NCBI GenBank assembly: GCA_029552125.1
Contig: JAKPEE010000156.1
Span: 11,088-75,087 of the forward strand
Length of the DNA stretch: 64,000 bases
Source: Bacillota bacterium
GTDB taxonomy: Bacteria > Bacillota > Dethiobacteria > DTU022
Direction: 5' to 3'
The translations under genes were made by a program, and so were the position numbers. How positions within the stretch are numbered: position 1 is the stretch's first letter; the number at the start of each line of letters is the position of its first letter. Below are positions 1-42,548 of this stretch, piece after piece. The notes beneath the pieces were generated by a model. It saw only the letters and a program-made list of their open reading frames with translations. It did not search any database and had not been told where the DNA came from.

Positions 1-17
1 GGCGGAAAAGTGAAAAG

Positions 18-920
18 TTGGCCGAGCAAAAAATAGTTGACGAAGCCATAAGGCAAGCCTATCATGTTGATTATCCAGAATTTGCCTATATTTGTGGCGG
101 TTTGCGTAAGATTGCGGTCAACCCCGGGGATCTTCGCGCCCGCAATATGCTGCTGCAAAAAGGGGTCAGGTATTATTCTAGTGTACAATTTTTTATTTAC
201 TCTTGTGCTTATTTCTTGCCTGTTGATATTTTTCTGGATATTGGAGCGAACTATGGGGAGTGTTTGTTCGCGCTTCCTTTATACAAAAAAGTAAAAGTTC
301 GCGGCTATGAGGCCAATGCCGGCCTGCTTAAATATCTTAAAAAATCAAAGACTTATAACGATGATCTTCATGATCTGGCCATCACGTGGTATGCGGTAAC
401 AAATCGTGCCGGCGAGATGATCTCTTTCTATATCGATACCGAGTGGTCCGGTAAATCAAGCGCTTTACTGATGAAAAATCAGGGCAGCGTCCTCAGGATC
501 GATGTTCCGACTACCAGTATCGACCATGAAATGAACCAGCTAGGCGGCTGTAAAATGCTCCTGGTCAAGGTGGATGTGGAGGGTTTCGAACCGCTGGTGG
601 TGGAGGGTGCGGCCAAAGTTAATCGCGATATTCCCAACATTATCTATCTGCTCGAGTTTGACAGCAAGTTTCTGATGCGTGGTGGCATCGAACCGAAGGC
701 TTTCTTTAATAAACTGGCTGCCCAGTTCCGCGTCTATAAACTTTCCTATCGCCATATCAACCCCGTCAAGGATTTTATGCATTTATCTGCACAACAGCAA
801 GGCTCATCGAGAATACATGTTGATCTCATTTTGACCAAATTTAGGGACCCCCGCATTAACAGTGTCTTCGAGCAAGAGATTGCCTCGCAAGATTTAAAAA
901 AAATATGTGGATTACTATAA
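18..920 (+). CDS. FkbM-family SAM-dependent methyltransferase
   Basis: 300-aa ORF with a TTG start. The frame stays open to the window edge, so the 5' end is uncertain. 'DIGANYGE' and 'LVKVDVEGFEP' blocks are typical of FkbM-type methyltransferases. Confidence 0.7.
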   Translation: MAEQKIVDEAIRQAYHVDYPEFAYICGGLRKIAVNPGDLRARNMLLQKGVRYYSSVQFFIYSCAYFLPVDIFLDIGANYGECLFALPLYKKVKVRGYEANAGLLKYLKKSKTYNDDLHDLAITWYAVTNRAGEMISFYIDTEWSGKSSALLMKNQGSVLRIDVPTTSIDHEMNQLGGCKMLLVKVDVEGFEPLVVEGAAKVNRDIPNIIYLLEFDSKFLMRGGIEPKAFFNKLAAQFRVYKLSYRHINPVKDFMHLSAQQQGSSRIHVDLILTKFRDPRINSVFEQEIASQDLKKICGLL

Positions 921-947
921 GCCAGGTTTAATGCTAAATATTCCCGG

Positions 948-1712
948 CTAGACTTCATTTAAAAAGTAATCACATATCTGGCGTATGATCAGGGCGCGAT
1001 TCTTGTATTTGCCGGTAACATGGTATATTCTGACATCATCGTCAAGGTAGGGATGAATATCTTTTACATTCGCTCGCTGTTCCGAGGGAAGACTCATTGC
1101 CGGCAAGCAATTAAAAGAGTCGGGGTAGAAAAAAAGTGGAACGTTACCCAGCGCAAATAAATAATAAGCCAGAGTTTGATGAGGATAACGGCAAAAAAGC
1201 AGGGGGGCCGCGTAGACAATTTTCTCGGGACTGATGGCCTCCGCGCAGATCCGGTCATAGATCATAACGCCGCTGTTCATATAATAATGGTCATTGTAAG
1301 CTACACCCTGTAGAGTTTTATTTTTGACCAAAGCATCGATGCATGCAAAAGATGTCCTGGCGTGACGGGGTGAAGTTTTCTTGATACCGCAATAACCCCG
1401 CGGTACAAGATCAAATAGGCTCTCGGCGTTCCGCCTGACGCAGCAACTGTCATCCAGGACCAGGATGCGGTCATAACCATGCTGTGTCATGTATTTCCAG
1501 GGAAAGAAAGATTTTGCCGCATAAGCAATCTTGTTGCGCCGCCCGGGCTTCTGCGGTAGCTCCGGCAAAGGCAGCTCTTCTTGCGAAGGTGGAAAGCGTT
1601 CCACGAAAAAATCAGCCCGGCATACCCGGGCATAATGTTTCATTGCCGGTATGGTATAATTCGCCCAGGGCCTATGGCCAATAGAAATGGTAATAATGGC
1701 CAGCTTCTCCAT
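948..1712 (-). CDS. Nucleotide-diphospho-sugar glycosyltransferase (GT8-like)
   Basis: 254-aa ORF. It has a DxD-like 'VLDDSC' and an 'MNSGVMIY' block reminiscent of family-8 glycosyltransferases. Family assignment is from memory only. Confidence 0.5.
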   Translation of the reverse strand: MEKLAIITISIGHRPWANYTIPAMKHYARVCRADFFVERFPPSQEELPLPELPQKPGRRNKIAYAAKSFFPWKYMTQHGYDRILVLDDSCCVRRNAESLFDLVPRGYCGIKKTSPRHARTSFACIDALVKNKTLQGVAYNDHYYMNSGVMIYDRICAEAISPEKIVYAAPLLFCRYPHQTLAYYLFALGNVPLFFYPDSFNCLPAMSLPSEQRANVKDIHPYLDDDVRIYHVTGKYKNRALIIRQICDYFLNEV

Positions 1713-1817
1713 AATTGCTCACCTTCATCTTTGCCTTATTTTCCAGCCCTGCAGCTAAATAATTGCCGCTGCGAAGAGCGAAACAACACCTCCATCACTG
1801 CGCGGTAATCAGGGCGG

Positions 1818-2762
1818 TTAAACGAAATTACTTTGTTTGCCATGCACAGCGATGGCCGCTTCCACAAGTTTTAGCGGGCGGCCCGCTTCTTTGGCCTGCC
1901 TGGCCAGAGCCCGCGTCTCTCTGGGGAAACGGCTTTGCCAATACCCCGGCTTCAAAGAATGGAGCCCGCTGCGGTCGTCCATACCGATCCCCCTGGCCAC
2001 TTGCTTGATATCAGCGCCCATTATTTCACACAGGCTGGCAATTTCGTTGATAAATGCGATTTTCATATCCATAAAGGCGTTGGCGGCAAGCTTGATCATT
2101 TCGGCAGTCTCCGGTTTTGTTACCATAAGAGGTTCTAGGGGCCATTCATAGCAACGGTAGAGTAAGCGCATAATTTTGGCAGCCCTGGCGTTAGTGACCC
2201 CGAAAATAACCTGCCGGGGGTGGCGGAAGCTTTGGAGGGTGCTGCCTTCACTTAAGAAATCGGGATTGGCTACCACATCAAACGGATAGGCGGCGTTTCT
2301 CACCTGTTGAGATTCGCGGATAATCTGCTCCAGGGCTCTGGCTGTGCCCACAGGCACGGTGGACTTGTTGATGATAATTTTATAGTTATCCATGGCCAGG
2401 CCGATAGACCTGGCAACATCGCAAAGATCATCTACCATTAAATTTCCATCCCTGTCGGAGGGGAGGCCGACGTCCAGGAAGATAACATCGCACTGCGATA
2501 TTGCCGCAGACAGGCTGGCCTCAAAATGCAGCAGCCCCTTGCTTAATGCACCGGCGATGAGATCTTCCAAGCCGGGTTCGTTGATTGGCATTTGAGCCCG
2601 GTTCAGCCGGGCAACTTTATCCGGCGACGGATCGATACAGGTAATTTTATGGCCGGCAGCCGCCAGGCAGCCGGCCACCACCAGGCCCACAGTTCCTGAT
2701 CCGATCACGGCAATCTTATTTCTAACAGTAATTCTTCTGAGCTTTCTTATTTCCATCACCAT
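1818..2762 (-). CDS. UDP-glucose/GDP-mannose dehydrogenase family protein, C-terminally truncated and active-site degenerate
   Basis: N-terminal Rossmann motif 'KIAVIGSGTVGLVVAGCLA' plus the central domain. The canonical 'GxGxGGxCxPKD' catalytic-Cys block reads 'PGYWQSRFPRETRAL'. The ORF stops before a UDP-binding C-terminal domain, and only 105 nt remain before the next gene. Confidence 0.65.
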   Translation of the reverse strand: MVMEIRKLRRITVRNKIAVIGSGTVGLVVAGCLAAAGHKITCIDPSPDKVARLNRAQMPINEPGLEDLIAGALSKGLLHFEASLSAAISQCDVIFLDVGLPSDRDGNLMVDDLCDVARSIGLAMDNYKIIINKSTVPVGTARALEQIIRESQQVRNAAYPFDVVANPDFLSEGSTLQSFRHPRQVIFGVTNARAAKIMRLLYRCYEWPLEPLMVTKPETAEMIKLAANAFMDMKIAFINEIASLCEIMGADIKQVARGIGMDDRSGLHSLKPGYWQSRFPRETRALARQAKEAGRPLKLVEAAIAVHGKQSNFV

Positions 2763-2933
2763 GGCAAGCCGTATGCTTTTTATCCCGCCTGCTAGCCTAT
2801 GGAAGGCGTTTAACAGGGGACTGATCCGGTTGGAATACTGTTTATAGCATTTGGGGTAATATCCAGCGCTATCACATTAGTATATTATTAGGGGATGATT
2901 GAGTTGGTGCCTGATCCGGCCTGGAAATTGACT

Positions 2934-4049
2934 CTAATAGTTGGCGGAGGCGAAGTCTACCAGGAATTTGGCATACTCCAGGGGATTGAGGAAAGAGCGG
3001 TATATCACCGGTTGTTCATAGGACATAAACAGGGCTACCTTGGCTGACTTGGCGTTGCATTCGATTAACCAGAGATTTAAATGCCGGTCCAAGGCAAAGT
3101 CAATACCCATATCGCCAAACATACCATAGATCTTCTCGACGTTCAGGTATACATTTAATAAAAAGTCACTGATCCGGTTATAGAGAATAAAGAGCTCCAT
3201 ATCAGAGCAGTTTGTCATCGTTTTAAACAAGTCGGTAAACTTATAGACAGCCGTGCCGGCCCGGGTTGTAGTTACAGGAGAGTTCAATGCCGCCAACCGG
3301 GCCGATATGGCCACAATCTCCAGGCGGCCCTGGCCATTCCGCTGTAGTTCAGCCCTGAAATCTACGTGCTGGCCGTTTAAGTGAAATACATCAATCGCTT
3401 CTTGCACAATGAAATTCCGGCGATTAAAAAAAGGCCGGTAAAAATCAACCAGTTGGTCCCAGCTTTCGGCCACTTCCAGCCTTAAGTGGTCATCTACATA
3501 ACTGTATTCAAATAAATTGTCCTGCCGAAGCTTAACCCGGACAACCTTCCGGCTGTACCGCCCCACCGCCGGCTTCAGATAAATTGTTTTATATTGTTTA
3601 AGCATGTCCTGCATGTCTTGCTCCTGGTGATAAAGGACAGTATGGGGCAAATGGCTCTTCATCCCCGGTATGGTGGACAGGTAGCAATAGAGCTCCCACT
3701 TGTTAAAATCATTAATGGGATTGATCGTTTTTATGCCCATGGCGGCGACCAGCTCTCTAAATTTTCTAATCTTAGGCGTGCTGCCCTCAGATCTCCGGTT
3801 ATAGATTACATCAGGAAAAGTATATTCGCCTGTATCCCATCGCTTGGTTTCTTCGTTGTAATAAGTCCCGGTAATTCTTTGTTTCTCCAAATCAACATCT
3901 TTAATTGAAAAGAAATACAAAATAACTTGCGCTTCCCGGTTTGCCTCCTGCAAACCGTTTTTATCGAAAGGCGGTTCCTGACGGCGCAGCTTTTTGATCA
4001 CTGAATTAGTTACAAATACTCCGACCAGGGGTTTATGAACATGAATCAC
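2934..4049 (-). CDS. YheC/YheD-family ATP-grasp protein (paralogue 1 of 7)
   Basis: 371-aa ORF with a GTG start. It has 'VDFRAELQRN', 'SPVTTT' and the ATP-grasp metal-ligand block 'GIDFALD...NLWLIECNAKS'. These blocks are shared with six other ORFs in the window. Confidence 0.8.
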   Translation of the reverse strand: MIHVHKPLVGVFVTNSVIKKLRRQEPPFDKNGLQEANREAQVILYFFSIKDVDLEKQRITGTYYNEETKRWDTGEYTFPDVIYNRRSEGSTPKIRKFRELVAAMGIKTINPINDFNKWELYCYLSTIPGMKSHLPHTVLYHQEQDMQDMLKQYKTIYLKPAVGRYSRKVVRVKLRQDNLFEYSYVDDHLRLEVAESWDQLVDFYRPFFNRRNFIVQEAIDVFHLNGQHVDFRAELQRNGQGRLEIVAISARLAALNSPVTTTRAGTAVYKFTDLFKTMTNCSDMELFILYNRISDFLLNVYLNVEKIYGMFGDMGIDFALDRHLNLWLIECNAKSAKVALFMSYEQPVIYRSFLNPLEYAKFLVDFASANY

Positions 4050-4433
4050 GCTAATTTAACACTCCAGGTTTAATAGTTTATCTTACATCTTTGGGCCAGG
4101 CCCGGCGTAATAGCTCTTTAAATAATACCATGATCATAAATTTATAGGGGGCAGGCGGCCTTGATGATAGAAAAGGATGCTGCCGCACAATGTTTACTAT
4201 ACTCTATGTTCTGTTTATATGTTTGGTTCCGGTGGAGTATCCTCCGGCCTTTTCCATTGCTTTCCTGGTAGAGCATCCCGGTTGGATAACGTCTACCCTT
4301 TTTTTTTGGCCTTGGAGAGTAACAGATAATGCTTTAAATAATATACTGCATCAGTAGTGATATAAAAGCAACTATAACGACTGGCATTAATTTAGCTGTT
4401 TAACGCCGGTTTGAAGGAGAATTTTGACCCTGT

Positions 4434-5579
4434 ATGTTAACCAAGCATAGCAGCACTCGGGATCCCGTTATGGCCATTCTGGTAAGCAATTTAACAGTGC
4501 AACACTTAAAAAAACAAATTGTCAATCCGCGGATTAAATTACTTTTGGAAGCCAACAAAGAGGTGAACCTTGATTATTTTTATTTTTCCATTAACCGGGT
4601 AAGGCTGCCGGAGGGCAAGATCAAGGGGGTATACTGGAATGACCGGTACAATCTCTGGCTGACTAAAGAGTACGCCTTGCCGGATGTTTTATACCTGAGG
4701 GGAGGCATCCCTTTAAGGTACCGGGATCGATTCGAGATGTTTATGGAAGTTTTAGCCAACAATAAAACCAGTATAATCAATTACCCCCGTTTTAACAAGT
4801 GGGATCTTTATGTAACAGTATCCCAGGATCAAGTCTTAAAGGACAATCTTCCCGCTACCCGGACGGTAAATAAACCGCGAGAGATCGTGAAGATGTTGCA
4901 GCATTATGATTCTGTTTACTTGAAATCGCATTTGGGCCGAAAAGGTGATTTTGTATTGCGGGTAGATAAACAGTCCAACGAATACTATCGTTACAGCTAC
5001 TACAAGCACAGCCGGAATGAGCTGGTCATCAATACGGTATACGGATTGCCGGCATTGCAGGACGAGGTTTATAAATTTTTTCGGGGCAAAGATTTTATTA
5101 TCCAGCAGGCTATAGATCTGTTAACTATTGATAGCAGGCTTGTTGACATGCGAGCGGAGCTCCAGCGGAACCGGTATGGAAAACTTGAAATTGCGGGCAT
5201 ATCGGTGCGCGTGGGCAAGCCTAATTCCCCCATTACCACTCACGATGCGGCTTATCCCTTTGACAGCTTTTTTGAAAATGAGATGCACTATCCCAAAGAA
5301 AGAGTAGAAAAGATCAGGGAAAAAGCTGAACAGTTCTTGTTCCGCGTTTATGACTGTATTGAAAAAAAGTATGGGGAATATGTTGAAATAGGCATTGACT
5401 TCGCCATAGATGCAAACGACAAACTCTGGCTAATCGAAGCCAACTCGCAATCAACAAAGAATTCACTGGGTAAAGCCTATGGCAGGGACGTGTTGTTGAA
5501 GGCTTACCGGAATATTTTGGAATACGCCAGGTATGTAGCTGAAAACGAAGCTAAAGACCGGCCATTTTTTGTTACCTAA
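4434..5579 (+). CDS. YheC/YheD-family ATP-grasp protein (paralogue 2 of 7)
   Basis: 381-aa ORF with 'VDMRAELQRN', 'SPITTH' and 'GIDFAID...KLWLIEANSQS'. AAGGAG lies 14 nt upstream of the ATG. Confidence 0.8.
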   Translation: MLTKHSSTRDPVMAILVSNLTVQHLKKQIVNPRIKLLLEANKEVNLDYFYFSINRVRLPEGKIKGVYWNDRYNLWLTKEYALPDVLYLRGGIPLRYRDRFEMFMEVLANNKTSIINYPRFNKWDLYVTVSQDQVLKDNLPATRTVNKPREIVKMLQHYDSVYLKSHLGRKGDFVLRVDKQSNEYYRYSYYKHSRNELVINTVYGLPALQDEVYKFFRGKDFIIQQAIDLLTIDSRLVDMRAELQRNRYGKLEIAGISVRVGKPNSPITTHDAAYPFDSFFENEMHYPKERVEKIREKAEQFLFRVYDCIEKKYGEYVEIGIDFAIDANDKLWLIEANSQSTKNSLGKAYGRDVLLKAYRNILEYARYVAENEAKDRPFFVT

Positions 5580-5604
5580 ACTATTGGAATGAGAGAGTGA
5601 ATCA

Positions 5605-6873
5605 ATGGCTTCTTTTGCTGCTCGACAATTATTAAAGCCGATGTGTGGGAAATGGATCAAAGGCGATCAAAATACAGTGATCAGCGGTTTTAGCAACAAG
5701 GCTTCCAAAGTTAAACCGGGGTACATGTTTTTTGACACAAAGGGAGGAAAAAGAGGCCAGCGCAACATTGCCAGAGCGATACAAAATGGTGCCGCGGCCA
5801 TTGTGGTTTCGAAAAAAAATTTTGATCAGCACCTGTTTGAAGATGAAAAGGCGCCAGCGGCAGTAATCACGGTAAGCGACGTATGGGAAGCTATTTGGGT
5901 TGTGGCCAAACTATTCCGTGATCTGCACCATATTCCGGTGGTAGGCGTTACCGGCTCATCGGGTAAAACGACAACTACGCATATGATCGCTTCAATTTTT
6001 AGCAGAAGGTGGAAAACTCATAAAACCAAAGGGAATCTGAATTTGCCCGAATATTTGCCCGCCCAGATCATGCGTTTGCAATATGGCTACCAGGCGGCGG
6101 TTTTTGAAATAGGCATGCACCGGCGGGGCCAGGTCGGCTGGCAATCAAGCATCATCCAGCCGGAAGTAGGTATTATTACCAATATTGGGATAGCCCATGT
6201 GGAATATCTGGGTAATTTGGAACAGATCATTCTTGAGAAATCAGATATTATCAAAGGCATGCCTGAACACGGCTGCTTAGTTCTAAATGCAGATAGCCCG
6301 GCCACAAAACAAATTGATTTATCAGGCTTTAAAGGAAAAATTGCCTATTTTGGCTTAAATAACAAGGCTGACTATACGGCGTCAGAAATTATGATTAGAA
6401 GAAGGGGCACATTTTTTAAAGCGGCAATAGATGGAAAACAGCATTATTTTTTTATTCCCGTTTATGGGCGCCATAATGTTTATAACGCCCTGGCGGCAAT
6501 AGCTGCGGCCAGGTACTATAATTTCGACATAGATACAATTAAAGCAGGCTTAGCCGGATTTAGCCAGCCAAAAATGAGATTGCAAATCCTGCCAGGCCTA
6601 AGGCAAAGTGTTTTAATCGATGATACGTATAATGCCAATCCTGACAGCATCATCGCCGGGCTGGAAGTGTTAAAGGAGCTTTCCGGGAAAAAAACAAGTG
6701 TTGCCGTTTTAGGCGAGATGCTTGAGCAAGGCCAATATGCCCCGGAAAACCACCGCAAAGTAGGTAGAAAAGTTGAGGAGCTAGAAATTAACTGGCTCAT
6801 TACCGTTGGGGAACTAGCCAGAGAAATTGCCGGAGCGATTAAGTCAACCAAAATAAAAAAAATGGTCCTTTGA
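5605..6873 (+). CDS. MurF-type Mur ligase (UDP-MurNAc-tripeptide--D-Ala-D-Ala ligase-like), reading frame broken near the 3' end
   Basis: N-terminal Mur-ligase domain, P-loop 'VVGVTGSSGKTTT' and 'IDDTYNANPDS'. The ORF ends prematurely just after an A8 run. The conserved C-terminus continues in the +1 frame (next feature). Confidence 0.8.
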   Translation: MASFAARQLLKPMCGKWIKGDQNTVISGFSNKASKVKPGYMFFDTKGGKRGQRNIARAIQNGAAAIVVSKKNFDQHLFEDEKAPAAVITVSDVWEAIWVVAKLFRDLHHIPVVGVTGSSGKTTTTHMIASIFSRRWKTHKTKGNLNLPEYLPAQIMRLQYGYQAAVFEIGMHRRGQVGWQSSIIQPEVGIITNIGIAHVEYLGNLEQIILEKSDIIKGMPEHGCLVLNADSPATKQIDLSGFKGKIAYFGLNNKADYTASEIMIRRRGTFFKAAIDGKQHYFFIPVYGRHNVYNALAAIAAARYYNFDIDTIKAGLAGFSQPKMRLQILPGLRQSVLIDDTYNANPDSIIAGLEVLKELSGKKTSVAVLGEMLEQGQYAPENHRKVGRKVEELEINWLITVGELAREIAGAIKSTKIKKMVL

Positions 6874-7009
6874 CAACACCCAGGAGGCGAGCACCTTTTT
6901 ACGGAAGGCGCTTCCTGGAAAATCCGTGGTTCTCGTCAAAGGTTCAAGGGGATCGCGGATGGAACGTGTAGTCAAAGCACTAACTGCTCGACATGAGGGA
7001 AGGCCATGA
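6857..7009 (+). other. Out-of-frame C-terminal segment of the preceding MurF-type gene
   Basis: My own translation of frame 2 gives 'KKWSFDNTQEASTFLRKALPGKSVVLVKGSRGSRMERVVKALTARHEGRP*'. 'VLVKGSRG..ME.VV' is the canonical MurF C-terminal block. The shift maps to the A8 run at 6855-6862. Confidence 0.75.
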
Positions 7010-7043
7010 ACATGGAAGATTTGAAGAAAGGGTAGTATGAAAA

Positions 7044-8150
7044 ATGGGACCTCTCATTTTAAATAAGCCGGTAATTGCCATAACCGGCAGTTGCGGTAAA
7101 ACAACAACGAAAGAAATGATCGCTTCAATTTTGCAAACCAGGTGGACGATCATTAAAACACTGAAAACCAGGAATCAGCCTCGACATACCAAAAAAATTG
7201 CGGAAAAGGTGGGGCCACACCACCAGGCAGTGGTCCTGGAATTCGGTATGGGAAGGAAAAATGCGGGGAAAAAACATTGCCGCTACATTCAACCCAACAT
7301 GGTTGTCATTACCAATATCGGCACCGCCCACTATGGTAAACTTGGCAACAGTATTGCTTTAACTGCGCGCCATAAATCCGCACTGATTAAGCAGATGAAA
7401 CCTGACGGGATCCTTTTTATTAATAATGACGACATCAATAGCAGACTGCTTCATACCGGAGCTTTTTCCGGTGAGATAGTCACTGTGGGAATTAAAAAGC
7501 AGGCGGACTACCGCGCCGATAAGGTTTACTATCTGGATAAAGGGATGGGTTTTCAGGCCACCCTGAATGGGAAGTGGGAGTCATTCTTCATTCCCTCTTT
7601 CGGCTGGTGTAATGTCATGAATGCGCTATTTGCCATTGCCGTCACGCACCGGCTTGGTTTTACCCTGGCAGAGATAAGATCCGGCTTAAGCAGCTATGCC
7701 GTCCCCCACCACAGAATTAATTTACACCACCTGCCCGATGGCGTATTGTTAATTGATGATACGTATAATGCCAACCCGGAAGCAGTAAAAGCGGCTGTAG
7801 ATGTATTGGTTGATCTGGGCAAAGGGAAAAAGAAAATTGCGGTTATCGGCAGCATGCTTGAGCTGGGAAATTATTCTCCAAAAGGGCACATGGATATAGG
7901 CAGATACATGGTGAAGCAGAAGATTGACTTGATTTGTGCCTTTGGTCTAAAGGCGGAATCAATTTGCAAAGGAGTAGCCGGCGCGAGAGACTGTAGTTGC
8001 AGGCATTTTATTAACCGGCATGAACTGCACGACTGGCTGGCGGCAAATATCGGGCCTTCCGTAGCGATACTGGTTAAAGGGTCAAATCGGATGAAGATGA
8101 AAGAGACAGTAGAATACCTGATTCTTCATTATACTAATCAGTCCATCTAA
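7044..8150 (+). CDS. Mur-ligase family protein lacking the N-terminal substrate domain (MurF-like middle and C domains only)
   Basis: 368-aa ORF that starts directly at the P-loop 'VIAITGSCGKTTTKEM'. It has 'IDDTYNANPEA' and C-terminal 'AILVKGSNRMKME'. Confidence 0.75.
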   Translation: MGPLILNKPVIAITGSCGKTTTKEMIASILQTRWTIIKTLKTRNQPRHTKKIAEKVGPHHQAVVLEFGMGRKNAGKKHCRYIQPNMVVITNIGTAHYGKLGNSIALTARHKSALIKQMKPDGILFINNDDINSRLLHTGAFSGEIVTVGIKKQADYRADKVYYLDKGMGFQATLNGKWESFFIPSFGWCNVMNALFAIAVTHRLGFTLAEIRSGLSSYAVPHHRINLHHLPDGVLLIDDTYNANPEAVKAAVDVLVDLGKGKKKIAVIGSMLELGNYSPKGHMDIGRYMVKQKIDLICAFGLKAESICKGVAGARDCSCRHFINRHELHDWLAANIGPSVAILVKGSNRMKMKETVEYLILHYTNQSI

Positions 8151-8275
8151 AAAAGGCAGATTATCCCCGCCTGCTAATATTTACTCTTCTCTGCACCAGA
8201 TGTCTATACGGCTCATAATCTATAGAAAAGAAACCATTACACTTTGTAAAAATATGCGGAAAGGAAGCTGGTGAT

Positions 8276-8806
8276 ATGGCAGCAGCATTAACCTGTAGCT
8301 GTTCAGGGGTATTAAAGATGCGGTTTAAGGAAATTGTGTTAGATGCAAATATCTGCCCCGGTTTTTTAATGGGCGGTAGCCGGTTATCTTTGCAGATGGA
8401 GAATCTAAGTTTTAGTTCAAAGGAAGTAAGCGCTCCACAGTATTATCAATTTGCCGAGGGAAAGGGGCTGGCTGTATCGGGGTTTGGGACTCTCACGGTG
8501 ACTGAGGAAGGCTCCAGGGAGCAACTGGATGCATTCTTTAATCTTTTTATGATTGAATCAGGGGTTGGAGCCGACAACCACGCTTCCCTGACCCTCTCCA
8601 GTATTACCGGAAATGGAGCCATCATCTCCTATGCATTATCGTTTATTTCTGACAAGGTAGATGTTACGATTATGCCTCATGATGAGCAGCATGCCGTTAG
8701 CGGGATCAATTTAAGGACTGTAAGTTCGCTGCGGCAGCATCAAGCCAAACTAATCATTTTAAAGAATGACCGCATTATAACCAGGGATTTATTGTCGGGG
8801 CATTAG
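8276..8806 (+). CDS. Hypothetical protein
   Basis: 176-aa ORF with coding-like composition and no motif I recognise. The start is uncertain; an internal Met at 'MRFKEIV' is also possible. Confidence 0.4.
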   Translation: MAAALTCSCSGVLKMRFKEIVLDANICPGFLMGGSRLSLQMENLSFSSKEVSAPQYYQFAEGKGLAVSGFGTLTVTEEGSREQLDAFFNLFMIESGVGADNHASLTLSSITGNGAIISYALSFISDKVDVTIMPHDEQHAVSGINLRTVSSLRQHQAKLIILKNDRIITRDLLSGH

Positions 8807-8920
8807 CATCCAATTATTGAGAAGAAGGGGCCTTTGATCACCGCCAACGAACAAACAGGGTGAGAAAGGCCCACCATTTGGTGCCTTATTGTCCCGGAAA
8901 GGAGTGCTGCCGGTCGTATC

Positions 8921-9562
8921 TTAGTTTTTGTCTGATGCCAGTTCCCGGCCCCAGCGCAAAAGGCGTGCGGCCGCGGATTCGCCCAGCGCGGCCAGGTCTT
9001 CGGTGACCAGGTACTCATTGGCCACGGCGTCAAAAAGGATGGAGGCGCTGGCAGGCACCTCCTGGTCCCCGGGTTCAAGGCGCAGCAGCAGCGGCAGGCG
9101 GGGCAGCGCCATCACCAGGTAGGTGTTTGCTTCTTTGCCGGGGCGGGCATTTAATTTTTCTAACAGCAACTGTTTGAACAAGCCCGGCCTGGGGCCGAAA
9201 AATTCGGCCAGAGGGTTCAGGGCGCGTTTGCTAAAAGCGGCACTATAACTGCTGCCGCCCCACAGCCGGTTGAAAGGCAGCCACTTGCCCTGCGGCGGCT
9301 TCCCGGGGGCGCCGGTCAGGTAATGCAACAGGATCAGGGCAGTAGCAGTGGGGGCCGCTTGATTTGTGTTATAGGAGAGAACCTCCCCGGTAGGCCAGAG
9401 GATGCGGTAGATGCGGCCCAGGTAGGGCAGTACGAATTCGCGCCACGACAGGGGCGGGTAGATTGATAAGGCGGCGCCGCTGCTTCGGGCCATCTCCAAG
9501 GTGTTTTTTTCGGCGAATTGCTGCCGCGCCTGCTCCAGCACGGCTTCGTAATTATCTCTCAT
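8921..9562 (-). CDS. Hypothetical protein (possibly DUF3786-like)
   Basis: 213-aa ORF. The N-terminal 'NYEAVLEQARQQF...MARSSGA' pattern resembles DUF3786 proteins as I remember them. This is not verifiable here. Confidence 0.45.
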   Translation of the reverse strand: MRDNYEAVLEQARQQFAEKNTLEMARSSGAALSIYPPLSWREFVLPYLGRIYRILWPTGEVLSYNTNQAAPTATALILLHYLTGAPGKPPQGKWLPFNRLWGGSSYSAAFSKRALNPLAEFFGPRPGLFKQLLLEKLNARPGKEANTYLVMALPRLPLLLRLEPGDQEVPASASILFDAVANEYLVTEDLAALGESAAARLLRWGRELASDKN

Positions 9563-9872
9563 CGGTATACCTCCAGTGATTTTCTATAAATAACCGGTAA
9601 CTCGAGACCACATCTGCCACTCAAGAGCTATTGCTCCCGGCGATGACAGGCGCCAGTGTTTCCAGTTAGTCGTTCTATTTTTTATGCGCCAAATACAATT
9701 TTCGCCGAAAATACTGCCGTTCCTGTTAAACGAGAAAGCATTCTTTGACCGGCGTTTGTAAAAAGAGACTACAGATAATATTTCCCTTATTGGTTGGCTA
9801 TGCTATAATAGTCCTCAACCAGATGGTATTGCAAATGAAGATTATTAGCTTTGGCGAGAGGAGGGCCGTGAA

Positions 9873-12555: not shown

Positions 12556-12855
12556 GTGTCATATGGTGGAGGTGCGGCGGCAGGAGGAGCCGCGGCAGCT
12601 GCGGCAGCGGCCGTGGCCGAGGCCGTCAAGGCATCGGGGGCCATTGTCAGGGTTAGTCCCGCTGATTTCTGTACTATTGTCAACCGGGCCGAAAAGCCGC
12701 TGGTGGTTTTTTCGAAGAGTAAATTTTTCAGGACAGCCTATCATTATTTAACCGGTTACAAAGGCTTTGTATTCTACACCAGGTCAAGCGGGAGGCTGCT
12801 GTTTAAAAGTGGCATCGAGATGGTTAAGGCTCAAAAAATCTGGATTCCTTCTTGA
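12556..12855 (+). CDS. Hypothetical small protein with Gly/Ala-rich N-terminus
   Basis: 99-aa ORF with a GTG start 6 nt after GGAGGAGGG. The N-terminus is 'GGGAAAGGAAAAAAAAVAEAV', followed by a globular-looking half. No recognisable family. Confidence 0.45.
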   Translation: MSYGGGAAAGGAAAAAAAAVAEAVKASGAIVRVSPADFCTIVNRAEKPLVVFSKSKFFRTAYHYLTGYKGFVFYTRSSGRLLFKSGIEMVKAQKIWIPS

Positions 12856-12973
12856 TCAGGATTGACAGAGGCAATGCGAGGAGTTGCACTGCTTTTCTCC
12901 CGTCACCCGTCTCCTGGATTCTGTCTTCCCTCCCTCACAAGCCATTGTAAACGGAAAAAACCATGCCCACTAA

Positions 12974-13002
12974 TAGACGATTCACCAGTGGTATAGTATA
13001 AT
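12974..13002 (+). promoter_or_regulatory. Candidate sigma-A-type promoter for cimA (TAGACG-17-TATAAT)
   Basis: The hexamers are read directly from the sequence with 17-nt spacing. The -10 ends 40 nt upstream of the cimA ATG. Confidence 0.35.
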
Positions 13003-13042
13003 ACCCTTAATTTTATTTTTTTCACGACAGGAGAGACAGCCT

Positions 13043-14680
13043 ATGCCCAATCTTGCCATTTATGACACCACCTTGCGGGACGGGTCGCAGCGGGAAGGGA
13101 TCTCCTTTTCCGTAAGCGACAAACTAAAAATTGCGCAAAAGCTGGATGAATTTGGCGTTTCTTACATCGAAGGGGGTTGGCCCGGCTCCAATCCCAAAGA
13201 TTTGGAATTTTTTAAACGGGCCAGGGAACTTAAGCTGCGGCAGGCCCGTCTCTGCGCATTCGGCAGCACCCGGCGCCCGCATACCGGCGTATCCGAGGAT
13301 GCAAATATTAAAGAACTGGTGGCTGCGGGAACAGATGTGGTCACCATTTTCGGCAAGAGCTGGGATTTTCACGTGCATAACGCCCTCTCTACTTCTTTGG
13401 AAGAAAACCTGGCCATGATTGAGGATACGGTGGTTTACCTTAAATCTTTGGGCCGGGAAGTTATTTACGATGCCGAGCACTTTTTTGACGGCTACAAAAG
13501 CAACCCGGACTACGCCCTGGCGACCATTAAAGCCGCGGCCCGAAGCGGGGCCGATGTGGTCGTGCTTTGCGATACCAATGGTGGACTGCTGCCGTGGGAA
13601 CTGCCGGAGATATTGAGCGCAGTAAAGCAGGCTGTGCCCGTGCGCCTCGGCATTCATGCCCATGATGATACCGGGATGGCGGTAGCCAATACCCTGCTGG
13701 CGGTGCGTCATGGCGTTGAACATATTCAAGGCACGATTAACGGTTACGGCGAGCGCTGCGGCAACGCCAACCTGTGCACCATAATTCCAACTCTGCAGTT
13801 AAAGATGGATCTGCCTGTAGTTTCTTCCGCTCAGCTTCAAGGCCTGACCAAGCTTTCCCGTTTTGTGGCCGAGCTGGCCAACATTGTACCTGCGGAGCAG
13901 CAGCCGTATGTGGGCTTTAACGCTTTCACGCACAAAGGCGGTATCCATGTGGATGCGGTCAGCAAAAGCCCCGTTACTTATGAGCATATCCAGCCGCAGA
14001 AAGTGGGCAACCGGCGGCGCATTCTCGTTTCAGAGCTGTCCGGCCGCAGTAATATTTTTCTTAAGGCGCAGGAGAACAACATCGGGCTGTTAAAAGAGCA
14101 TCCCCAGACTAAAATTGTTTTGCAGCGTATTAAAGAACTGGAGCATCAGGGTTACCAGTTCGAGGGGGCCGAAGGTTCCTTTGAACTTTTGGTTCTAAAA
14201 GCGCTGCAGGCCTACCGGCCCTTGTTCAAGCTGGAGGGGTTCCGCCTGATCGTTGAAAAAAGGGCCAGCGGCCAGCTTTACTCGGAGGCCACCATCAAGG
14301 TTCAGGTGGGGGAGAGGCAGGTGCATACCGCCGCAGAAGGTAACGGCCCGGTCAATGCCCTGGACAACGCCTTGCGTAAAGCGCTGGAGGAAATATACCC
14401 CGACTTGAAGAAAATAAAGTTAATGGATTTCAAGGTAAGGGTGCTGGACGGCGCCGGCGGGACCGGATCGCAGGTGCGGGTGCTCATCGAATCCAGGGAC
14501 GATCGCAAAGCCTGGGGTACGGTGGGGGTTTCCACCAATATTATCGAAGCAAGCTGGCAGGCCCTGGTGGACAGTATTGAATACGGCCTCCTCTGCGGCA
14601 AGCTGCCCGAACTGGATGAGGCCAAGGCGGTGCTGCGGCACTTGAAGGGGACGGAAGAAAAGGCGCAGGGAGAAGAGTAG
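13043..14680 (+). CDS. cimA: (R)-citramalate synthase (2-isopropylmalate synthase / homocitrate synthase family)
   Basis: 545-aa ORF. The N-terminal '[18 protein letters not shown]' HMGL-like barrel motif, '[14 protein letters not shown]' and a C-terminal LeuA-dimer-like regulatory domain are present. Length and N-terminus fit the CimA subgroup. Confidence 0.8.
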
Positions 14681-24401: not shown

Positions 24402-25316
24402 TTGCATAAAAGGCTTGAGCGGTTTTTGACATACCTGGATGTTCAGAAAAACGCTTCACCATTAACCCTGCAAAGCTACCGGAATGACATCATGCAATTC
24501 CTGGCTTTGTTAAATCAATATGGCGAAGACCTGGGTGGTACGGATCACTACCGTATGCGCCGGTTCCTGGCCTGGTTAAAGGAACAGGGTTATAGCCGCA
24601 GCACCGTGGCGCGAAAATTGTCGGCAACTCGCACATTTTTACGTTTTGTACAAAGGGAAGGCGGGCTGCAAAGCAGTAGCTGGGCTGCCGTGGCCAGGCC
24701 GCGCCAGGAAAAAACGCTGCCGTCTTTTTTATACTACCACGAGGTGGCGGCGTTGCTGGAGGCTCCGGATTGCGGCACACTGCTGGGTTTTCGAGACCGC
24801 ACCATCCTGGAAGTCATTTATGCCTGCGGGTTGCGGGTCAGTGAGCTGGTCGGGCTGGAGCTGGCTTCCCTTCAACTGGAAGAACGGCTGGTAAAGGTTT
24901 ACGGCAAGGGGAGCAAAGAGCGCATAGTGCCCCTGGGCCGGGTGGCCGCCGCTTATCTGGAAGAATATCTGCAGCGGGTCCGGCCGGCCTTGCTAGCCTT
25001 AAACCGGAATGGCGCCACCACGGATAAAGTTTTCATCAACCATCGCGGCGGCCCGTTAAGCGATCGGGGAGTGCGGCTTATGTTTCAAAAGTATATCCGG
25101 CAGGTTTCGTGCCGGGAAAAGATTACCCCTCACTCCCTGCGCCACTCGTTTGCCACGCACATGCTGGAGCGGGGGGCTGACTTAAGGGTGGTCCAGGAGC
25201 TTTTGGGACACGTCAGCGTTTCCACGACCCAGGTTTATACCCATATTACCCGGGAGCACCTGCAGGCAGTATACCGGCTGGCCCACCCACGCCGGGAAAT
25301 TGAAAAGGGCGGTTAG
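24402..25316 (+). CDS. xerC: Tyrosine recombinase XerC/CodV
   Basis: 304-aa ORF with a TTG start after AAGGTGA. It has the N-terminal SAM-like core-binding domain and catalytic '[13 protein letters not shown]...[14 protein letters not shown]'. It sits in the canonical position before hslVU-codY. Confidence 0.9.
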
Positions 25317-35710: not shown

Positions 35711-36769
35711 TTACGGGAGAGGGCCGGGGAGAGGGGATGCTGGTGAAGTACTCATAATATTCTTGCGGGAAGACGGGGCCTGTTCCGCTTTGGTGACCGT
35801 AACGCCGGGCGAACCGGGATCAAGATTGATAAAGGCAGTGGCGCCGGCCCGCTTAAGCGCCTGCCTGGTCCGGGAGGGATCCAGGGTTAAAGCAATAATG
35901 GTCCCTCCGCCGCCCGCGCCGGCCAGCTTGGCCGCCAGCGCCCCATTATCCCGGGCCACCCTGATCATATAGTTGTTCCGCTCTCCCGAGAAAGAGAGCG
36001 CATCCTGAATACGGTGGTTTTCATTCATCAGGAAAGCCAGGCGCGGCCAATCCCGGTTCAGCAGCGCTTTTTTGCCCTCCCGGGCCATTTCTGCAATCTC
36101 GCGGTAGCCTCTGACAACCTGCGGCTCTCCTTTCAGCCAGCGTTCGCGCAGCGGGCGGTGAAAATTGCCGGAGTGATGCTGTACCCCGGTATGGGCGATA
36201 ACAAAGGGCAGCTCGCTGCAGAAAGAATGAAGCGGCTCCACCGTGGCGTACTGTTCAAGGTGCAGCTCCCGGTAATGCTCTTTGCTCCGGAAATCCAGGT
36301 AATTGAGGCCGCCGAAAGTAGTCATGTACGCATCCTGGTAGCCGCAATGGCAGTTCAGATAGTTTAGCTCTATGGTCCGGTTTAACTCCGCCAGATGGTA
36401 TTTATGATAGTTGCGCCCCGTATAGGCCAGCAGCGCAGACAATAAAGCGGCTATGACCGCCGTGGAACCGGCCAGACCCGCCTGCTCCGGCACCGTGGAG
36501 TGAATGAATATTTTGGCCTTCAGTTGCTCCAGGTTGAGGCAGCGCAGAACAGCGCGGGGAATATCAAAATAGTCACCCCGGCAGGCAAAATCGCTTGTCC
36601 GCTGTAAAATCACGCTGCCCCCGCGGTTTTGCAGGATAAGCTTATCCGCGGGCTCTATGGTTGCCGTAGCCGTGTTTTCGATGGAGCAGGCAAGCACCGC
36701 GCCTCCGTACCCGTCGCTGGGGTTGCCGATTATGCCTGCCCGGCCGGGGGCCCGGGCGACGATCAACAA
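35711..36769 (-). CDS. GHMP-family sugar kinase (glucuronokinase-like subgroup?)
   Basis: 352-aa ORF. It has N-terminal 'RAGIIGNPSDGYGG', GHMP motif 'PEQAGLAGSTAVIAALLSALL' and C-terminal 'GAGGGGTIIAL'. Several blocks resemble plant-type glucuronokinase as I recall it. Confidence 0.7.
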   Translation of the reverse strand: MLIVARAPGRAGIIGNPSDGYGGAVLACSIENTATATIEPADKLILQNRGGSVILQRTSDFACRGDYFDIPRAVLRCLNLEQLKAKIFIHSTVPEQAGLAGSTAVIAALLSALLAYTGRNYHKYHLAELNRTIELNYLNCHCGYQDAYMTTFGGLNYLDFRSKEHYRELHLEQYATVEPLHSFCSELPFVIAHTGVQHHSGNFHRPLRERWLKGEPQVVRGYREIAEMAREGKKALLNRDWPRLAFLMNENHRIQDALSFSGERNNYMIRVARDNGALAAKLAGAGGGGTIIALTLDPSRTRQALKRAGATAFINLDPGSPGVTVTKAEQAPSSRKNIMSTSPASPLPGPLP

Positions 36770-36851: not shown

Positions 36852-38003
36852 CTATGATGATGTACTGCGAATTGGCGCCAGCCGGCTCCGCTGCCCTCCA
36901 GGGGGCGGCGGAGCGGCAATTTTTAAAGCATATTCCAGGGGATTGATATAGGCCCTAAGCAGCGCTGCACCGCCATAAGCGTTCATCAGCGATACCTTGG
37001 CCGATTGTGCATTACATTCAATAAACCAGGGGTGGAAATTCCGGTCCACACCGATATCGATGCCCAGTTCCCCAAAAGGACCATAGTGCTGCTCCAGCAT
37101 TAAGTAAATTTGGCCCAGGAGGCGGCGCAGTTTATCTTCCAGCGTGGACACGGTAGCCTGATCCAGCTTTAAAACATGGCCAAAAAAATCTTCAAAGCGA
37201 TAGCAGGCTGCATGGGTGGTGATGGGGGAGCGGGCATGGCCGACCCGCACCGGCATGCCGACAATTTCCAGCAGGCCCTCTCCGTTGCGCTGCATTTCGG
37301 CCCGCAGGTCAGCTTTGCGATCTCCGATGCTGATCAAATCGATAGGCTGCTGGATGATGACCTCCTCTTGGCCAAAAAAATTGGCCACAATACGGGGCAA
37401 ACACTTGTTGTTGGCCCGCTGGATAAACAGCCTGCCGTCATAATAGCTGTATTCCAGGAGACCTCCCGGCAGCCGGCTGACCTTCATTACCTCCCGCCCC
37501 CGGCTTCCCCGGCAGGCTTTCAGGTAGATTTTTTCATAACGGTTGAGCATGCTGGAAATATCGCTTTCCTGCCCGCGGTAGAGCCTGGTATCCGGCAAAT
37601 GGGGTTTGATTTGGGGGCTGGTGCACAAGACCCGGTATAGCTCCCACTTGTCAAAAGTGGATCGGGCGTTCACCAGGGGGATGTGCATTTTTTCGGCCAG
37701 CTTTAAAAAATCTTCCGCTTTTTTATCCAGGTGATCCGGGATTTTGCGCATGTAAATCACATGGGGGAAGGGAAAGATGCCGCTGTTCCAGCGGTTTTGC
37801 GAAGGATCATAGAACAATCCCCTGATCCTCAATTTTTCGCTGTCAATGTCTTTAAGCGTAAAAAGATAGAGCACCGGTTTAGTGTCGCTGCTTTCCCCTA
37901 CGCTAATCGGGATTTTGGCCAGGTGAGTAAACCGGTTGAGGTTGTTCTGGCTGATCAAAACACCAAGATAAACCGGCCTGCCGGCAGTTTTAGCAACAGG
38001 CAA
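36852..38003 (-). CDS. YheC/YheD-family ATP-grasp protein (paralogue 3 of 7)
   Basis: 383-aa ORF with a TTG start. It has 'ADLRAEMQRNGEG', 'SPITTH' and 'GIDIGVD...HPWFIECNAQS'. Confidence 0.8.
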   Translation of the reverse strand: MPVAKTAGRPVYLGVLISQNNLNRFTHLAKIPISVGESSDTKPVLYLFTLKDIDSEKLRIRGLFYDPSQNRWNSGIFPFPHVIYMRKIPDHLDKKAEDFLKLAEKMHIPLVNARSTFDKWELYRVLCTSPQIKPHLPDTRLYRGQESDISSMLNRYEKIYLKACRGSRGREVMKVSRLPGGLLEYSYYDGRLFIQRANNKCLPRIVANFFGQEEVIIQQPIDLISIGDRKADLRAEMQRNGEGLLEIVGMPVRVGHARSPITTHAACYRFEDFFGHVLKLDQATVSTLEDKLRRLLGQIYLMLEQHYGPFGELGIDIGVDRNFHPWFIECNAQSAKVSLMNAYGGAALLRAYINPLEYALKIAAPPPPGGQRSRLAPIRSTSS

Positions 38004-38016
38004 TTTATATTAAACC

Positions 38017-38769
38017 TCATTTCGTCTGGTATTTTTTAACTGTACTTTGCTCGATCAGGCGATGATAGCGATCAAACTTTTCGTCCAGGCCCCGGACATA
38101 TTGCGGCCTTGTATTTACTTCAAAAATCCACGGCCTGGCCTGGCGATCCAGCCCGATATCCAGGCCCAGCTCCCTTAAATGCGGATATTTTCGACATAGC
38201 GCCGCCGCCGTTTTTTCTCCGATAAAAGTAAGCAGCGCCTTTAGTCGATCGCAGGCTTGTGGCTTTAACCCGGCCAGTGTAAAGGCCTGCTTTAGCTCAA
38301 CAAGCCTGCCGCCCTGGCAGAAGTTGGTTACAGCTTTGCCCGGAGCCCTCAACCTGGCGATCATCGCCGTTACCTCCCAGCGGTTGAATGGCTTTTGGAC
38401 ATTTACCCGCAGATCAAAAGGTACATTGTTGATCGTTAACAGCTTTATGCCCTGTTGAATGATAAAGGGCGCTCCCGCGGAAATCCTTTCAACCAGGGCG
38501 GCTGCCTCCGCTACGGTCTTGCCTTTAAGAATTCGTGTATCATAGTGAATTGAGCAGGATCCTCCATCATCCAGGTTTATAGAGATAACTTTGTTTCCAC
38601 CCCTGCCGCAGTCCGGTTTTACATAAACATATTTGTATTTATTGAGCATTCTGGCTAAGTTTTCCCGGCTATACAGTTCGGTTTCGGGAATATACCGGTC
38701 AAGCCCGGGATCTTTAAGCAGCACGCCGGTTTTGGCCGTCTTGCTGCGAACCACTTGATAGGTGCGCAC
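38017..38769 (-). CDS. Short YheC/YheD-related ATP-grasp protein lacking the N-terminal domain (paralogue 4 of 7, class II)
   Basis: 250-aa ORF with a GTG start. It has 'FDLRVNVQK', 'AVTNFCQGG' and 'GLDIGLD...RPWIFEVNTRP', so the ATP-grasp core alone is present. Confidence 0.7.
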   Translation of the reverse strand: MRTYQVVRSKTAKTGVLLKDPGLDRYIPETELYSRENLARMLNKYKYVYVKPDCGRGGNKVISINLDDGGSCSIHYDTRILKGKTVAEAAALVERISAGAPFIIQQGIKLLTINNVPFDLRVNVQKPFNRWEVTAMIARLRAPGKAVTNFCQGGRLVELKQAFTLAGLKPQACDRLKALLTFIGEKTAAALCRKYPHLRELGLDIGLDRQARPWIFEVNTRPQYVRGLDEKFDRYHRLIEQSTVKKYQTK

Positions 38770-38784
38770 TTAACATCAAATCCT

Positions 38785-39948: not shown

Positions 39949-40100
39949 GAATAAGGCATCCTTATATCAGAAATGGTTACAGGCTATTATATGCCTGCTG
40001 TTGCATAAGCGTAACATACCGCTGGGCGAAAAGAGCTTTTCCCCGGTTATAGCCGCTCGATGATGAACCGTATATCGCCTTTTGAATATACTAAACTGTA

Positions 40101-40130
40101 ACTTAAAAATAAAAAACTTAAAAATAAAAA
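40101..40130. repeat. Perfect tandem duplication of the 15-mer ACTTAAAAATAAAAA
   Basis: Read directly as acttaaaaataaaaa twice. It lies in the divergent promoter region, 53-82 nt upstream of the 40183 ATG. Confidence 0.9.
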
Positions 40131-40182
40131 AGGAAACGAATCGATTACGAACCCCCTTAAACAAGTTAATGGAGATTAGGTC

Positions 40183-41301: not shown

Positions 41302-41315
41302 AGGTGTCTTAAACC

Positions 41316-42455: not shown

Positions 42456-42548
42456 TTTCGAATTACATCTTTCACCCCTGAAGATGAATATACTGTATTA
42501 TCTACCTCTCCATACTATCAGGGGTATATATTTTTAGGAGGTTTATTA

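Follow-up and report, generated by a model that had tools for sequence, protein, structure and literature searches.

We analysed a 64,000-nt stretch of DNA from an uncultured Firmicute, Bacillota bacterium (DTU022; assembly GCA_029552125.1, contig JAKPEE010000156.1, positions 11,088-75,087), hereafter called the window, in which two genes for YheC/YheD-family (YheC/D) ATP-grasp ligases, AG1 and AG2, lie beside two genes for MurF-like Mur ligases, MurF1 and Mur2, at a site that we call Locus A. We propose with moderate confidence that Locus A encodes a non-housekeeping amide-ligase module which applies the logic of the Mur pathway within a glycan cluster, and which would, for the spore envelope, build a peptide on a sugar or glycan that bears a carboxylate. 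Locus A makes up the right-hand half of a predicted glycan-biosynthesis cluster and one instance of a neighbourhood that recurs in Bacillota. The family assignments, context statistics and selection signal below were computed, and from them we infer a reaction order, an acceptor and a cellular destination. To our knowledge YheC and YheD, which have been listed as spore-coat ATP-grasp proteins, have been without an assigned substrate for two decades.

Two sets of relatives were used in the comparisons: four independent metagenome contigs (L001-L004) that are ~100% identical to the window, and the metagenome-assembled genome (MAG) JAKOVL010000131 (L007), which has ~88% nucleotide identity to the window and the same gene order throughout, and whose genes were the counterparts for all ratios of nonsynonymous to synonymous substitution (dN/dS). 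Every open reading frame (ORF) named in an earlier note on this DNA is present in the window (Table 1), and the core genes (the ligases, an FkbM methyltransferase gene and a glycosyltransferase (GT)-like gene) are under purifying selection, with dN/dS values of 0.13-0.18; the adjoining UvrD gene, taken for comparison, gave 0.19.

The earlier note had described AG1 and AG2 as divergent paralogs of the YheC/YheD type, and this description was borne out: both match PF14398 (ATPgrasp_YheCD; scores in Table 1, gathering threshold 26.8 bits), and they are divergently oriented and 34% identical to each other (E 2e-67). Neither matches the TupA-like family PF14305 at E<=0.01, PF14398 being the only family reported. 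Residues K164, D238, R240, R259, D322, D326, E335 and N337 are invariant across 31 YheC/D homologs, and the same eight catalytic residues are retained in all seven YheC/D paralogs of the window, that is, in AG1, AG2 and the five members of a second cluster (below). An AlphaFold2 (AF2) model of AG2 (predicted local distance difference test (pLDDT) score 92.3) has the ATP-grasp fold. A PDB sequence search with AG2 returned no related solved structure, and the closest solved folds found by Foldseek are ligases of ribosomally synthesized and post-translationally modified peptides (RiPPs), LysX/ArgX, GshB, Ddl/VanA, RimK and TTL; these matches are weak (template-modelling (TM) scores 0.45-0.55, identity <=14%), and the folds nearest to the model are those of amino-acid-, peptide- and protein-ligating ATP-grasps.

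Are the two Mur ligases copies of the housekeeping MurF? Members of the MurF1 family (~460 aa, without a PF01225 match) are 48-60% identical to one another, and identity falls sharply, to <=40%, against canonical MurFs that carry PF01225; this gap, together with a neighbour-joining tree in which Mur2, MurF1 and canonical MurF form three separate clades, rules out a recent duplication of housekeeping murF as their origin. Scores for the curated murF model TIGR01143 (cutoff 288.6 bits) were 439-448 bits for canonical MurF, 323-341 for the MurF1 family (341.1 for the intact L007 ortholog) and 252-267 for the Mur2 family, and the truncated MurF1 of the window lies above the cutoff and its Mur2 below it (Table 1). 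As control loci we took canonical MurFs (<=35% identity) among the matches listed in a metagenome scan with a Mur2 alignment, a scan that is unsuitable for counting Mur2 contexts because its conserved motifs are common to all MurFs. The mraY gene lies directly downstream in nine of ten control loci and is adjacent to MurF1 or Mur2 in none of the MurF1 and Mur2 loci examined, Locus A included, and a YheC/D gene is near a control MurF in only 1 of 80 loci. The window contains no Mur ligase beyond MurF1 and Mur2, and these have no division and cell-wall (dcw) neighbours. As far as can be tested on the window and the relatives' loci, MurF1 and Mur2 thus appear to form dedicated clades and not to be housekeeping MurF; the earlier claim that these ligases stand outside any dcw context and are not of the housekeeping type is supported by the separate clades, the lack of mraY and dcw neighbours and a fixed frameshift in MurF1 (below).

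MurF1 begins 25 nt past the end of AG2, very nearly where the earlier note had put a MurF-type ligase (26 nt), and it matches Mur_ligase_M, Mur_ligase_C and TIGR01143. Its intact ortholog in L007 (467 aa) aligns with Escherichia coli MurF (1GG4) over residues 3-462, and PF01225 was not detected in the MurF1 N-terminal domain by a Pfam search. Mur2, which is 37% identical to MurF1, begins at the P-loop, aligns with Pseudomonas MurF only from about residue 102 and can have no in-frame upstream extension, so that the description of a second Mur ligase without an N-terminal domain was correct. It keeps all the Mur-ligase catalytic motifs, and its AF2 model (pLDDT 93.6) best matches the central and C-terminal domains of MurF (TM 0.86), with MurC and MurE next in the ranking, MurT 37th and cyanophycin synthetase CphA1 43rd. 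The Mur2 family is a large one of ~365-aa proteins, without the N-terminal domain, from Bacilli and Clostridia-type taxa. Annotation pipelines call these proteins, and many of the MurF1 family, 'MurF', a name that hides separate clades outside cell-wall clusters; it would be wrong to infer cell-wall redundancy or a duplicated drug target from such 'MurF' paralogs.

In eight of nine lineages a Mur2-family gene has a YheC/D gene within 10 kb, the distance used for these counts: the window and L007, Evansella vedderi (L031), L084, HGW-Firmicutes-13 (L085), Candidatus Contubernalis alkaliaceticus (L087), Desulfofalx alkaliphila (L171), Halobacillus halophilus (L173) and L174, the exception being Paenibacillus elgii (L172). 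MurF1-family genes are near YheC/D genes in five of six lineages (the Thermincola locus has none within 8 kb), and the MurF1 and Mur2 pair is kept in four lineages. Seen from the Mur side, the adjacency is therefore not specific to one strain. At L084 (10001-12358) a Mur2-like ORF is joined in frame to a complete YheC/D ATP-grasp domain and is interrupted by a single in-frame stop, at codon 620; this predicted fusion is of the Rosetta-stone type. In Phosphitispora and one MAG, MurF1-family genes adjoin a COOH-NH2 ligase, four YheC/D genes and CotE. A further feature of MurF1-family loci is a conserved block upstream of these genes in Thermincola, Phosphitispora and a MAG (L088, L089 and L090, ~6500-9400), which consists of YbaB and two small proteins, one of them with a hydrophobic segment.

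The locus of E. vedderi (L031) is the most informative for chemistry. Its gene order is (1) NDP-sugar (nucleoside diphosphate sugar) dehydrogenase, (2) GT2/GT1 fusion, (3) GT1, (4) GT-D, (5) pyruvyl transferase, (6) methyltransferase, (7) an ORF without a Pfam match, (8) three YheC/D genes, (9) an Asp/Glu racemase-acylphosphatase fusion (12602-13624), (10) YheC/D, (11) a Mur2-like ligase, (12) a genuine Ddl (PF07478 + PF01820; 16182-17252), (13) YheC/D and (14) a second NDP-sugar dehydrogenase, so the racemase fusion and Ddl sit amid five YheC/D genes and glycosyltransferases. The analogy with the Ddl/MurF pair that the earlier note had drawn is strengthened by this Ddl directly after a Mur2-like gene. 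Elsewhere, an Asp/Glu racemase ortholog is immediately upstream of the L084 fusion, an S11 DD-peptidase gene comes right after Mur2 in L087, L173 has an L-amino-acid-ligase-type ATP-grasp and a second Mur ligase, and in P. elgii (L172) a 2-hydroxyacid dehydrogenase and an aminotransferase adjoin the Mur2-like gene. Genes of the kind found in amino-uronic-acid sugar pathways (DegT, GFO/IDH/MocA, hexapeptide acetyltransferase and dehydrogenase) are also present in L174 and L087, and L174 has a YkvP_N-type glycosyltransferase as well; uronic-acid dehydrogenases and glycosyltransferases recur across the Mur2/YheC/D loci. The partner genes (Ddl, racemase, DD-peptidase and amino-acid-ligase ATP-grasp) suggest peptidoglycan-like chemistry, and the recurrence of the ligases with YheC/D, these partners, and uronic-acid and glycosyltransferase genes points to a Mur-like peptide on a non-murein sugar. 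Acylphosphatase-domain matches are also found in Halalkalibacter YheC/D loci (L014, L022).

On these grounds the module would work as follows: its parts are two YheC/D ATP-grasps that are putatively catalytically intact, a full-length MurF-derived ligase and a MurF-derived ligase without the N-terminal domain, each of which would convert a carboxylate to an acyl-phosphate and then join it to an amine. The ATP-grasp enzymes would add single amino acids or make short peptides, and the MurF-like enzymes would place an amino acid, or a dipeptide that in some relatives resembles D-Ala-D-Ala, onto the carboxylate of a growing sugar-linked peptide, the acceptor probably being a UDP-uronic-acid (uridine diphosphate-linked) or a glycan precursor. 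What the mother cell would make in this way, at a late stage, is a glycopeptide that decorates the spore envelope. The glycopeptide idea of the earlier note fits the flanking glycosyltransferase, methyltransferase and uronic-acid genes, and its substrate and product are at present candidates. A bolder and more doubtful version is that endospore-forming Bacillota run a second Mur-like cytoplasmic line, in which YheC/D enzymes and the two MurF-derived families would assemble a stem peptide with D-amino acids (D-Glu or D-Asp, D-Ala-D-Ala) on a UDP-uronic-acid sugar and glycosyltransferases would place the product in a spore-envelope glycan. If this is true, there is a peptidoglycan-like glycopeptide polymer distinct from murein, and the YheC/YheD coat proteins gain a substrate. 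E. vedderi DSM 9768 and H. halophilus are cultured and carry the module, and they are better experimental entries than the partly degraded copy of the window.

The partner genes can also be read as an alternative peptidoglycan-precursor pathway, in which MurF isoenzymes put a dipeptide or depsipeptide made by the ATP-grasps on UDP-MurNAc-tripeptide (MurNAc, N-acetylmuramic acid) for the spore cortex, the germ-cell wall or antibiotic tolerance of the van type. We think this unlikely. MurF1 does score above the TIGR01143 cutoff, and its alignment with E. coli MurF spans the whole protein, N-terminal domain included; Ddl, Asp/Glu racemase and S11 DD-peptidase genes do adjoin Mur2-family genes, as do the 2-hydroxyacid dehydrogenase and aminotransferase genes in P. 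elgii. However, Mur2 has no N-terminal domain, that of MurF1 has no PF01225 match, there is a gap of ~100 bits to canonical MurF, no Mur-pathway or dcw genes are adjacent, and the consistent partners are glycosyltransferase and uronic-acid genes, not peptidoglycan genes.

A link to sporulation is suggested by promoter-like motifs and by neighbours. The classical sigmaK consensus is AC-N17-CATAnnnTA. The window has five exact matches to this type of motif, against 1.04 expected, and none of 100 shuffles reached five; four of the five are intergenic within the two YheC/D loci, three of these directly upstream of a gene (Table 1), and a pattern with a 16-nt spacer gave 0 matches. The match upstream of AG1 falls in a conserved block of the AG1/AG2 intergenic alignment, and L007 has three matches against 0.27 expected, the third of which precedes its GT2/GT1 gene. 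CotE, SipL, YkvP_N-type and A_ENA genes neighbour these loci in relatives. In Bacillus subtilis the sigmaE regulon includes yheC and yheD, which SpoIIID activates (PMC517825), and YheD is a protein of the coat basement layer (PMC7725329). The divergent AG1/AG2 intergenic region also contains a T9 run at 4282-4292, at which L007 differs in length and sequence (CCTTTTTT).

Several observations weigh against our proposal. Mur ligases lie within 10 kb of only two of the 77 YheC/D genome loci, nearly all of which have 2-7 tandem YheC/D paralogs (the two are L007 and E. vedderi), and the closest orthologs of AG2 (49-52% identity, L008-L013) have no Mur ligase neighbour. The adjacency, which is conserved from the Mur side, is thus mostly not conserved from the YheC/D side, and the coupling therefore marks a subtype and is not a general property of YheC/D. 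No sigmaK-like motif (<=1 mismatch) was found upstream of the AG2-MurF1-Mur2 operon, and a sigmaE-type pattern had 0 matches even with one mismatch, so none precedes that operon; the spore link of the earlier note is suggested by the CotE, SipL and YkvP-type neighbours and the sigmaK-type motifs, but not at the promoter of the operon itself. Classical spo genes are absent from the window, so sporulation of the organism is assumed. We know of no demonstrated substrate for any YheC/D protein or for either Mur clade. With MurF1 frameshifted and the dehydrogenase gene shortened, the predicted function may have been lost in this genome. Finally, the alkaliphilic hosts described below would fit a vegetative acidic wall polymer equally well.

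A coat-directed role need not involve a glycan: the YheC/D ligases, and perhaps the Mur-like ones, could add amino acids to the side chains or C-termini of coat proteins, as RimK, TTL and LysX do for their targets. RiPP ligases, LysX/ArgX, RimK and TTL are among the Foldseek neighbours of AG2, CotE and SipL are adjacent in relatives, YheD is itself a basement-layer protein (PMC7725329), and the conserved 176-aa ORF after Mur2, which has its own sigmaK-type motif, could be a substrate. The structural matches are as weak as noted above and include Ddl and GshB equally, while the linkage to nucleotide-sugar and glycosyltransferase genes is strong and repeated and the 176-aa ORF is not kept in other loci. 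Mur ligases that act on proteins are, to our general knowledge, not known. We regard modification of coat proteins as quite unlikely.

Alkaliphiles are over-represented among the hosts that carry the closest homologs of YheC/D and Mur2 (Dethiobacter, Evansella, Alkaliphilus, Desulfofalx alkaliphila, Ca. Contubernalis alkaliaceticus, Caldalkalibacillus and Salipaludibacillus). Because of these hosts we considered a vegetative secondary cell-wall polymer, a teichuronopeptide-like one of uronic acid and peptide that would serve alkaline or ionic adaptation and be unrelated to spores. The recurring uronic-acid dehydrogenases agree with it, as do ATP-grasp amidoligases that are known or predicted to decorate surface polysaccharides (PMC12632600, PMC11800379). 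It is nevertheless improbable, since the sigmaK-type motifs are enriched at the YheC/D loci, CotE, SipL, YkvP_N and A_ENA genes are neighbours in relatives, the ATP-grasps are of PF14398 and not of the TupA type (PF14305), and the alkaliphile bias may reflect phylogeny.

The frameshift in MurF1 requires separate treatment. The ORF ends at a premature stop at 6873, and its 3' end continues in the +1 frame behind an A8 run (Table 1); the motif 'VLVKGSRG', which had been assigned to the first ligase ORF, is in this out-of-frame tail, and the reported 35 nt between the two ligases is right if the frameshift is ignored and wrong otherwise. A sequencing or assembly error is ruled out because the same A8 is present in four independent metagenome contigs, L001-L004. 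A programmed frameshift or conserved slippage site is also ruled out: L007 has A4-T-C-A6 at this point and other family members have a different sequence, so the insertion is lineage-specific. The tail differs from that of L007 by 11 synonymous and 8 non-synonymous codons, and its KGSR core by synonymous changes only; the frameshift is therefore recent, or it is bypassed. At the A8 site the gene may have been lost recently, the run may be a contingency site prone to slippage, or slippage during transcription may rescue the frame. That the frameshift is fixed in the population argues against essentiality, and with the dehydrogenase also shortened the module is probably impaired here, or else needs Mur2 and genes from other parts of the genome to work. 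Because of the low GC content (43-48% vs ~55% in the flanks), this frameshift, fixed in four assemblies, and the shortened dehydrogenase with its relaxed dN/dS of 0.34, we also considered a decaying, horizontally acquired island that no longer makes any product in this genome, which is very improbable given that synteny with the 88%-identity relative is fully kept, ligase dN/dS is 0.13-0.18, the frameshift is a single recent event with a tail core changed only synonymously, and all motifs are kept in Mur2 and in the two ATP-grasps, which are intact.

Table 1. Features of Locus A and of related parts of the window; dN/dS values are from comparison with L007.
Feature	Position	Strand	Evidence or remark	dN/dS
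FkbM-family methyltransferase, full gene 308 aa	1-920	+	PF05050, TIGR01444 (E 8e-16)	0.17
Predicted GT-A glycosyltransferase, GT8/GT64-like, 254 aa	948-1712	-	family matches of homologs	0.18
NDP-sugar 6-dehydrogenase without C-terminal UDP-binding domain	1818-2762	-	PF03721 and PF00984 present, PF03720 absent	0.34
AG1, YheC/D-family ATP-grasp ligase, 371 aa	2934-4049	-	PF14398, 218.7 bits, E 1e-64	0.15
sigmaK-type motif (AC-N17-CATAGAGTA) upstream of AG1	4200-4227	-	exact pattern; kept in L007 at 9775-9802	
AG2-MurF1-Mur2 operon	from 4434	+	AG2 first gene, then MurF1, Mur2	
AG2, YheC/D-family ATP-grasp ligase, 381 aa	4434-5579	+	PF14398, 225.3 bits, E 9.6e-67	0.13
MurF1, MurF-like ligase, N, M and most of C domain, 422 aa to premature stop	5605-6873	+	TIGR01143, 305.8 bits	0.146
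A8 homopolymer with +1 insertion, MurF1 frameshift site	6855-6862	+	window aaaataaaaaaaatgg vs L007 aaaatcaaaaaatgg	
Out-of-frame 3' end of MurF1, encodes WSFDNT...VVLVKGSRGSRMERVV...	6863-7009	+	translation, +1 frame	
Mur2, MurF-like ligase, M and C domains only, 368 aa	7044-8150	+	PF08245, PF02875; TIGR01143, 267.3 bits	0.166
sigmaK-type motif upstream of 176-aa ORF	8195-8222	+	exact pattern; identical sequence in L007, 13767-13794	
Conserved 176-aa ORF	8276-8806	+	L007 ortholog 89% identical	0.245
sigmaK-type motif, intragenic	24549-24576	-	exact pattern	
Second YheC/D cluster, five paralogs, no Mur ligase; not part of Locus A	36852-42455		tblastn, PF14398	
sigmaK-type motif upstream of YheC/D gene, second cluster	39985-40012	-	exact pattern	
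sigmaK-type motif between GNAT and M23 peptidase genes beside second cluster	43052-43079	+	exact pattern	

How does Locus A compare with systems that are already described? It resembles Ddl with MurF in that an ATP-grasp is paired with a MurF-type ligase, MurF1 aligns over its full length and Mur2 is closest to MurF in fold, and the P-loop, the Lys aligning with the carbamylated Lys, DDTYNANP and KGS are all present; it differs in that the ATP-grasps are YheC/D (PF14398) and not Ddl, the setting is a glycosyltransferase cluster without dcw genes or mraY, and the ligases form separate clades with the N-terminal peculiarities given above. Iyer et al. 2009 (Mol Biosyst 5:1636) reportedly predicted by comparative genomics that the YheC/YheD-CotE-COOH-NH2-ligase neighbourhoods of Firmicutes act in spore-coat or wall peptide synthesis or modification. 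Those neighbourhoods share the ATP-grasp family with Locus A, have tandem paralogs like those of the second cluster and have relatives of MurF1 directly beside them, whereas Locus A has neither CotE nor a COOH-NH2 ligase and instead has two MurF-derived ligases and glycan genes. CphA1 also combines ATP-grasp and Mur-ligase-like domains to make non-ribosomal amide bonds, and the in-frame fusion in L084 recalls it, but the domain order of that fusion is reversed, the genes are split in the window, the TIGR02068 scores (79.9 and 48.2 bits) are below the cutoff of 850, and CphA1 ranks low among the structural matches of Mur2; the presence of many divergent paralogs suggests that the product is a heteropeptide rather than a homopolymer. 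PgsB/CapB and MurT/GatD likewise have a Mur-ligase fold without the canonical N-terminal domain and stand outside the MurC-F series, but MurT models gave 48.5 and 23 bits (<=23 for Mur2) where the cutoff is 800, Mur2 is MurF-like by sequence and fold, no PgsB/CapB model is among the NCBIfam matches (all 25 of Mur2 and the best 25 of 30 for MurF1), and no PgsC/PgsA or GatD partners are present at Locus A.

The TupA-like and Campylobacter capsular polysaccharide (CPS) amidoligases are ATP-grasps that amidate the uronic acids of surface glycans. Like the Locus A enzymes, they are encoded among polysaccharide genes together with a dehydrogenase that forms uronic acid, and the proposed reaction joins an amine or an amino acid to the carboxylate of a sugar (PMC12632600, PMC11800379); they differ in belonging to PF14305, in having no Mur ligases and in making vegetative surface glycans. 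A role of YheC/D in coat or wall peptides is an old prediction, and glycan-decorating ATP-grasp amidoligases (PMC12632600, PMC11800379) are already known. Nothing in the literature searched describes MurF-derived clades that are linked to YheC/D and accompanied by Ddl, racemase and DD-peptidase genes, and the existence of two such dedicated clades appears under-described.

The genes to the left of AG1 are those that the earlier note had listed. The FkbM methyltransferase assignment is upheld by TIGR01444; the first 7 nt of this gene are beyond the left edge of the window, and the 308-aa product was called on L002 and L007. The 254-aa ORF had been labelled GT8-like: it has no direct Pfam or PDB sequence match, and the label holds transitively, in that of 40 scanned among its 153 representative homologs, ten match GT64, nine GT8 and three the FkbM domain. 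The dehydrogenase had rightly been called degenerate, since its C-terminal UDP-binding domain (PF03720) is missing; it is also shortened in L007 (337 aa), and its dN/dS, the maximum of the locus, is relaxed. It is probably a remnant; it would be either a long-lived one or a two-domain protein with a new role. In L007 the order is GT2/GT1 fusion, GT4, FkbM methyltransferase, GT8/64-like transferase and dehydrogenase remnant, and the GT2/GT1 and GT4 genes upstream of FkbM indicate that the left edge of the window cuts a larger glycan cluster. On the other side, the 176-aa ORF has no Pfam or NCBIfam match and no similarity to the small ORFs that flank related loci, and was found elsewhere only in L007; it may act as a substrate or as an accessory protein peculiar to this lineage.

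The five YheC/D paralogs of the second cluster are 21-39% identical to each other, and the cluster is flanked (35711-36769 and 42549-44688) by genes for a GHMP (galactokinase-like) kinase, a GNAT acetyltransferase and an M23 peptidase. The GC content of both YheC/D loci (1-8000 and ~38000-44000) is 43-49%, against 52-62% in the rest of the window, which may reflect a horizontal origin or a compositional bias of such genes. A 99-aa ORF at 12556-12855 has an N-terminal poly-Ala/Gly tract and no Pfam match, and is 94% identical to its counterpart in L007, with a dN/dS of 0.20.

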